From: Escherichia coli
Lineage (GTDB): Bacteria > Pseudomonadota > Gammaproteobacteria > Enterobacterales > Enterobacteriaceae
Length of the DNA: 37,002 nt
Reading direction: 5' to 3' (one strand)
Assembly: GCF_003334815.1 (NCBI RefSeq)
Contig: NZ_QOWO01000037.1
The position numbers were made by a program, and so were the translations under genes. Below the pieces are notes generated by a model. That model had not been told where the DNA came from, made no database searches, and worked only from the letters and a program-made list of their open reading frames with translations. This document shows positions 36,906 to 37,002 of the stretch, in pieces. Position 1 is the stretch's first letter. Every line of letters starts with the position of its first letter.

Positions 36906-36926
36906 CCGTTGTGCGGGGAGTAATCC

Positions 36927-37002
36927 CATAAGCGCTAACTTAAGGGTTGTGGTATTACGCCTGATATGATTTAACGTGCCGATGAATTACTCTCACGATA
37001 AC
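36927..37002. mobile_element. putative terminal segment of an IS186-like (IS4 family) element, cut by the window edge
   Basis: From about 36927 the sequence CATAAGCGCTAACTTAAGGGTTGTGGTATTACGCC... matches my recollection of the IS186 terminal inverted repeat; it is preceded by GGGGAGTAATCCC, resembling the GC-rich G4-N-C4 style target this element prefers. Boundary is +/- a few nt. Confidence 0.55.

Follow-up and report, generated by a model that had tools for sequence, protein, structure and literature searches.

An IS186 Element in the GC-Rich Hairpin behind hokE of Escherichia coli and the Predicted Loss of the 3' Fold-Back Pairing

The hokE Locus

The window (the whole stretch of Escherichia coli DNA that was analysed, 37,002 nt) ends just behind the small toxin gene hokE, and the features of this locus are compiled in Table 1. 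The gene itself is intact, and its assignment rests on the Pfam family HOK_GEF (PF01848; E = 9.2e-8, residues 5-46 of HokE) together with the RefSeq name, the NCBIfam Hok models giving 47.7 and 38.9 bits and thereby staying under their curated cut-offs of 89 and 73. Upstream of the gene the complete Rfam model of the hok leader and sok antisense target is matched, and a longer reading frame of 83 codons shares both the frame and the stop of hokE; going by the mokC/hokC arrangement, we take this frame to be mok-like. Still further upstream a putative LexA site is found, whose core CTGTATAAATAAACAG is the sole occurrence of the pattern CTGT-N8-ACAG in the 37-kb window. In the literature hokE is listed among the SOS genes with a Lex box, including that of K-12, which has the IS186 insertion (PMC2826370). 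On the minus strand, some matches to Rfam microRNA models were rejected as chance hits, with E values of about 0.4-0.9 and scores far under the gathering scores. On the strand opposite the hokE leader, a frameshifted pseudogene for a 'hypothetical protein' is entered in RefSeq (window 36575-36784, minus strand; 3017-3285 in the MG1655 locus, L001), which is most likely an annotation artefact laid over the sok/hok RNA region.

Table 1. Features of the hokE locus and the adjoining IS186 end, in window coordinates.
Feature	Position	Strand	Remarks
LexA-box core CTGTATAAATAAACAG (putative site)	36559..36574	+	about 30 nt upstream of the hokE mRNA 5' end
hokE mRNA 5' end GGCGGGTGCCT (tac-like), upstream fold-back partner	36604..36614	+	predicted to pair with AGGCACCUGCU; Rfam leader model starts at 36606
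hok mRNA leader / sok antisense target region (Rfam RF01794)	36606..36761	+	84.4 bits, gathering score 59, full model 1-157
83-codon ORF, presumed mok-like upstream extension	36654..36905	+	hokE frame, common stop; from the ORF list
hokE toxin gene, intact	36753..36905	+	50 aa, stop TAG 36903-36905; identical to RefSeq HokE WP_000956455.1
Left half of the split target hairpin GCGGGGAGTAATCC	36913..36926	+	palindrome whole in empty-site genomes
Left copy of the target duplication GGAGTAATCC	36917-36926	+	right copy seen in L001, L002
IS186 left terminal inverted repeat CATAAGCGCTAACTTAAGGGTTG	36927..36949	+	23 bp; exact reverse complement at the far end in L001, L002, L004, L006
IS186 left end	36927..37002	+	IS186/IS421 copies match at 100%; part of a complete element in MG1655
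First 7 codons of the IS186 transposase InsL (MNYSHDN)	36982..37002	+	matches CDS 3483-4595 of the MG1655 locus (L001)

The window is bounded by insertion sequences on both sides. Its positions 1-77 are the last 77 nt of IS1, matched at 100% by the ends of IS1A/IS1B in 4,942 genomes, and the opposite edge cuts into IS186; the window therefore looks like a contig of short reads that broke off at repeats, k being about 77. As there are IS ends at both boundaries, the absence of a transposase from the window says nothing about the genome. The stretch 1-15095 comprises the ybcF-purK-cysS-folD-sfm-fimZ region up to the tRNA-Arg(tct) gene argU (15067-15143), which joins the envY-side DNA directly. 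The DLP12 prophage, ompT and appY are absent beside argU, and the source strain is therefore not K-12.

The IS186 End and Its Target Hairpin

The 21 nt between the hokE stop and CATAAGCGCTAACTTAAGGGTTG (36906-36926) read CCGTTGTGCGGGGAGTAATCC, and the IS thus begins at the 22nd nucleotide after the stop, in agreement with the first-pass annotation, which had placed the end of an IS 22 nt past the gene. From 36927 onwards the window reads CATAAGCGCTAACTTAAGGGTTG TGGTATTACGCCTGATATGATTTAACGTGCCG ATGAATTACTCTCACGATAAC, i.e., the 23-bp terminal inverted repeat, a 32-nt leader and the first seven codons of the transposase (ATG AAT TAC TCT CAC GAT AAC), at which point the left end is cut by the window boundary. 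These 76 nt had been proposed to be an IS186 terminus, and this could be confirmed: they occur at 100% identity (E = 3e-31) in 2,188 of 5,426 complete E. coli genomes, in a median of three copies each that are chromosomal as well as plasmid-borne, and always under a transposase annotation of the 'IS4-like element IS421 family' or the 'IS186B family' (RefSeq PGAP names). The match is not due to chance. The further remark that the transposase gene is hidden by the window edge applies to the gene from its eighth codon on, whereas the first seven codons lie inside.

Of the IS, the window displays only these 76 nt, with the left repeat, preceded by the left copy of the duplication; everything beyond was read at identical junctions elsewhere. 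Over its final 503 nt the window shows 100% identity with MG1655 and many other strains, and the four junctions that were read through, namely hokE in MG1655 (L001) and RM9513 (L002), hokX (L004), and hokC in strain 4/2-1 (L006), each lead into an element of 1339 bp. In MG1655 this is a complete IS186 with perfect 23-bp inverted repeats and a 10-bp target duplication GGAGTAATCC, and its transposase of 370 aa is an IS4-family DDE enzyme (NF033592, 133.3 bits at a cut-off of 115; PF01609, E = 3.6e-26). An IS4-family transposase downstream, an opposite inverted repeat and a target duplication had been named at the outset as the features to look for; genomes with the identical junction have all three, the transposase being the 370-aa protein and the matching repeat lying 1.3 kb away. 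Judging from these junctions in other genomes, the source genome probably also carries the complete IS186.

The target of the insertion is an 18-nt palindrome, GCGGGGAGTAATCCCCGC, which starts 9 nt after the hokE stop and is entered in its loop-proximal part. Genomes with an empty site read ...AAGTAG CCGTTGT GCGGGGAGTAATCCCCGC ATATCCGGTTGTCAGGTCAGG(A/G)TGGTA AGGCACCTGCT TTACAC..., and the GC-rich GGGG...CCC flank mentioned in the first-pass annotation corresponds to GGGGAGTAATCCC at 36915-36927. Depending on the choice of boundary, the direct repeat at the MG1655 insertion amounts to 12 bp (GGGAGTAATCCC) or to the 10-bp duplication GGAGTAATCC, as the first and last bases of the IS (C...G) match the target and the IS boundary is consequently ambiguous by one base on each side. 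The hokE hairpin fits the GGGG-N6-CCCC type of target preferred by IS186, for which the published consensus is reportedly GGGG(N6/N7)CCCC. In RM9513 the right duplicate (L002 3913-3922) reads GGAGCAATCC and differs by one base from the left one, GGAGTAATCC, which indicates that this copy has some history.

Predicted Fold-Back Pairing and Its Loss

In the hok mRNA of plasmid R1 the stop codon is followed by a GC hairpin and then by the fold-back element, which pairs with the translational-activator element at the 5' end. As long as the ends are closed in this way, the full-length mRNA is stable and cannot be translated; 3' processing then activates it, and loss of the end pairing destabilises the mRNA pool. 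For hokE, the mRNA of the empty site was rebuilt by removing the IS and one duplicate from the MG1655 sequence, giving 368 nt from the 5' end defined by Rfam. In the predicted minimum free energy structure (-153.1 kcal/mol) the 5' end GGCGGGUGCCU closes onto the 3' segment AGGCACCUGCU, with the GC hairpin in between. This 11-nt complement is located about 45 nt beyond the insertion point, and its pair probability is 0.75-1.0, about 0.9; the eleven end pairs hold at 0.82-0.94 when 10-25 extra nt at the 5' side and 40-80 extra nt at the 3' side are included, and a fully pairable 11-mer in the 130 nt after the stop turns up in 1.5% of shuffles. All of these values are thermodynamic predictions for one locus. 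By eye, the corresponding segments GGGUGC and GCACCC can be recognized at hokX, and GCACCC in the flank of hokC, the 5' end of hokC having been removed by IS150 in strain 4/2-1.

In the occupied locus the 130 nt after the stop hold no fold-back partner of the mRNA 5' end, and a substitute partner was found nowhere on that strand of IS186. A transcript of equal length that reads into the IS is predicted to fold 22 kcal/mol less stably and without closure of the ends. The 3' fold-back element is absent from the window, and appears only after excision of the IS in silico or in empty-site genomes. The first-pass annotation had supposed that the IS removes or displaces this element, and displacement is what is found: the 11-nt partner has been moved by 1.35 kb, with no replacement in IS186. 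The missing fold-back element at hokE is the lesion itself and no reason to doubt the hok homology.

The best explanation of the locus, to which we assign a probability of roughly 0.88, is that IS186 resides in the hokE hairpin and disables control of the hok type through loss of the fold-back element. IS186 would have transposed into the GC-rich hairpin GCGGGGAGTAATCCCCGC behind hokE, duplicating 10 bp (GGAGTAATCC) and splitting the hairpin, and the 3' fold-back element AGGCACCTGCT would thereby have been shifted 1.35 kb from the body of the mRNA, to the far side of an element that has a transcription unit of its own. Since the hairpin is split and the 3' partner lies so far away, closure of the 5' end onto the 3' end would no longer be possible in the hokE transcript. 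The locus would keep the toxin ORF, the leader, the antisense-target region and the LexA-box-like site, and would lose hok-type post-segregational control. We infer this functional consequence from the model of R1 hok/sok and from the work of Pedersen and Gerdes of 1999. The earlier suggestion that hokE may be inactive can be upheld as regards post-transcriptional control of the hok type, the predicted pairing being lost, but not as regards the peptide ORF, the leader and the LexA-box-like site, all of which are intact.

On the other hand, the insertion might be neutral for hokE, which would then be a working, SOS-inducible toxin gene whose expression is independent of the 3' fold-back element. 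The intact ORF, the leader matching the sok model of Rfam over its full length and the LexA-box core are in line with this, as is the fact that hokE of K-12, a strain that bears the IS, is counted among the SOS-induced toxin genes that have a Lex box (PMC2826370). If hokE is SOS-inducible there, as reported, the promoter is functional, and under certain conditions the peptide could be produced. In addition, about 30% of complete genomes retain the insertion (see below), from which it follows that it is at least not strongly deleterious. Neutrality nevertheless appears unlikely to us, as the 11-nt 3' partner, with a predicted pairing of about 0.9, has been moved away without a substitute, and pairing loss would destabilise the mRNA pool according to the R1 model. 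Along these lines, the papers citing Pedersen and Gerdes 1999 treat the IS-bearing hok loci of K-12 as inactivated by IS elements.

The preferred reading thus remains the disabling of hok-type control by the split hairpin, and hokE::IS186 would be a textbook case of a mobile element that disables a toxin gene with the coding sequence left untouched and an RNA structural element cut off. For annotation, the arrangement matters little.

Distribution of the Insertion and the IS186 Hot Spot

The occurrence of the insertion was surveyed in 5,426 complete E. coli genomes. With a query of 1101 nt, which extends from ybdK to 373 nt inside the IS, the K-12 orientation was found at hokE in at least 1,281 genomes; the opposite orientation, queried with this flank attached to the other end of the IS, was found in at least 217. 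A copy of the empty site, with uninterrupted ...TAGCCGTTGTGCGGGGAGTAATCCCCGCATATCC..., is present in 3,647 genomes (152-nt query). Overall, the hokE site is occupied by the IS in about 30% of complete genomes. Both IS counts should be read as minimum values, since the query coverage drops where there is a tandem duplication or an IS150 further upstream, and the categories of site state overlap because hokE is often tandemly duplicated. For the occupied-site counts, the locus-specific 1101-nt queries replaced short junction queries of 151/152 nt; the short queries gave 1,741 (151-nt junction), 846 and 3,647 genomes, in sum more than the number of genomes, and also catch IS186 junctions at hokC and hokX (about 91% identity) and tandem copies of hokE.

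Strain RM9513 exemplifies the opposite orientation: the IS entered at the identical point, and its transposase is encoded on the other strand. A tandem arrangement of hokE was encountered in strain STN0717-11 (L003 1900-2052 and 2402-2554; unit of about 500 nt), and apparently exists in many other strains as well. Each of the two STN0717-11 copies has an intact hairpin and a 3' fold-back segment, and a T-rich, terminator-like tail follows the first copy and not the second.

IS186 is also found in the homologous hairpins of two paralogous loci. At hokX the target is GCGGGGGTAAAACCCCGC, with a 10-bp duplication GGGTAAAACC, and at hokC of strain 4/2-1 the target is GGCGGGGAGTGATCCCCGCC, with a 10-bp duplication GGAGTGATCC. 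These two insertions, together with the presence of both orientations at one position in hokE, as at lon, identify the hok 3' hairpin as a hot spot of IS186, and as the hairpin is a conserved part of hok-family mRNAs, hok loci can be regarded as natural hot spots of the element. Reportedly, the hairpin hot spot had already been noted for hokC and hokE by Pedersen and Gerdes in 1999. In the case of the lon promoter, opposite orientations at one IS186 hot spot were taken as evidence of independent events (PMC3045373). The opposite orientation at hokE and the hits in hokX and hokC accordingly speak for at least two to four independent events; within each orientation class, most copies are probably explained by descent.

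It could be argued that the wide distribution goes back to one ancient insertion that was inherited by descent, with no hot spot involved, and the K-12-orientation junction is indeed 100% identical across diverse strains, which would fit clonal inheritance if confined to one phylogroup. Such a single origin is quite improbable, however, given at least 217 genomes with the opposite orientation at the same base and the occupied hairpins of the paralogous hokX and hokC. The counts rather show that the occupied site is common and has been struck independently more than once. Hardly credible, finally, is the view that the 76 nt are a solitary or truncated end of IS186, or a product of faulty assembly at the edge of the contig: the window does stop 76 nt into IS186, and an IS1 end makes up exactly its first 77 nt, both being assembly breaks in repeats, but all four junctions (L001, L002, L004 and L006) lead into the 1339-bp element, 1,281 genomes match the 1101-nt query running 373 nt into the IS, and where a De Bruijn contig ends in a repeat, a multi-copy element is normally its true neighbour, which at the same time points to several IS186 copies in the source genome.

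Next to recurrent insertion of IS186 into the hairpin, a second element was noticed in hok leaders. In RM9513 an IS150 (L002 890-2335) is located in the leader upstream of hokE, inside the stem CCCCAGG...CCUGGGG, and in strain 4/2-1 an IS150 (L006 157-1560) is located upstream of hokC, at an apparently homologous point of the leader; hokE of RM9513 and hokC of 4/2-1 are therefore doubly hit, with IS150 upstream and IS186 downstream. A second IS hot spot may thus exist in hok leaders. It is tempting to go further and to see in the recurrence of IS186 (at hokE in both orientations, at hokC and at hokX) and in the leader IS150 the mark of repeated selection disarming the chromosomal hok toxins, such that IS elements would serve as a routine route of domestication, perhaps even as a reversible switch by way of precise excision. 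We consider this a long shot; if it were true, the counts given above, with about 30% of sites occupied, would be its first large-scale quantification.

Comparison with Known Systems

Neither the K-12 reference genome nor the work of Pedersen and Gerdes 1999 leaves anything essential in this arrangement to be discovered, and only the population counts and the explicit calculation of the end pairing are added here. The hokE::IS186 of MG1655 (IS186A / insL1) agrees with the present one in insertion point, orientation and target duplication, and the window is base-for-base identical to the ybdG-nfsB-ybdF-ybdJ-ybdK-hokE-IS186 stretch over positions 33500-37002. Only the part from 15096 to 37002 aligns to the syntenic stretch of MG1655, with about 99.3% identity between 15096 and 33499, and MG1655 has the DLP12 prophage, ompT and appY next to argU, in contrast to the window. 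Both the IS186 insertion in hokE of K-12 and the inactivation of the K-12 hok loci were reportedly described by Pedersen and Gerdes in 1999.

The IS186 insertions in hokC (K-12 and others) and in hokX (cysH-cas3 region) are alike in that the element sits in a GC-rich hairpin about 10 nt past the stop, whereas the loci themselves are paralogous, lie elsewhere on the chromosome and share about 91% identity with hokE across the junction. In E. coli B, hokX has been described as inactivated by an insertion element (PMC7232551). The insertions of IS186 at lon resemble those at hokE in their GC-rich target, in the repeated hits at one position and in the occurrence of both orientations (PMC3045373). 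At lon, however, the target is a promoter, whereas at hokE it is an RNA structural element.

With hok/sok of plasmid R1 (tac, fbi), the hokE locus has in common the leader carrying an antisense target, the in-frame or overlapping upstream ORF, a Hok peptide of about 50 aa, the GC hairpin behind the stop and a 3' segment complementary to the 5' end. It differs from the R1 system in that hokE is chromosomal and has a LexA-box-like site, and in that, in the window, its 3' partner has been parted from the gene by the IS.
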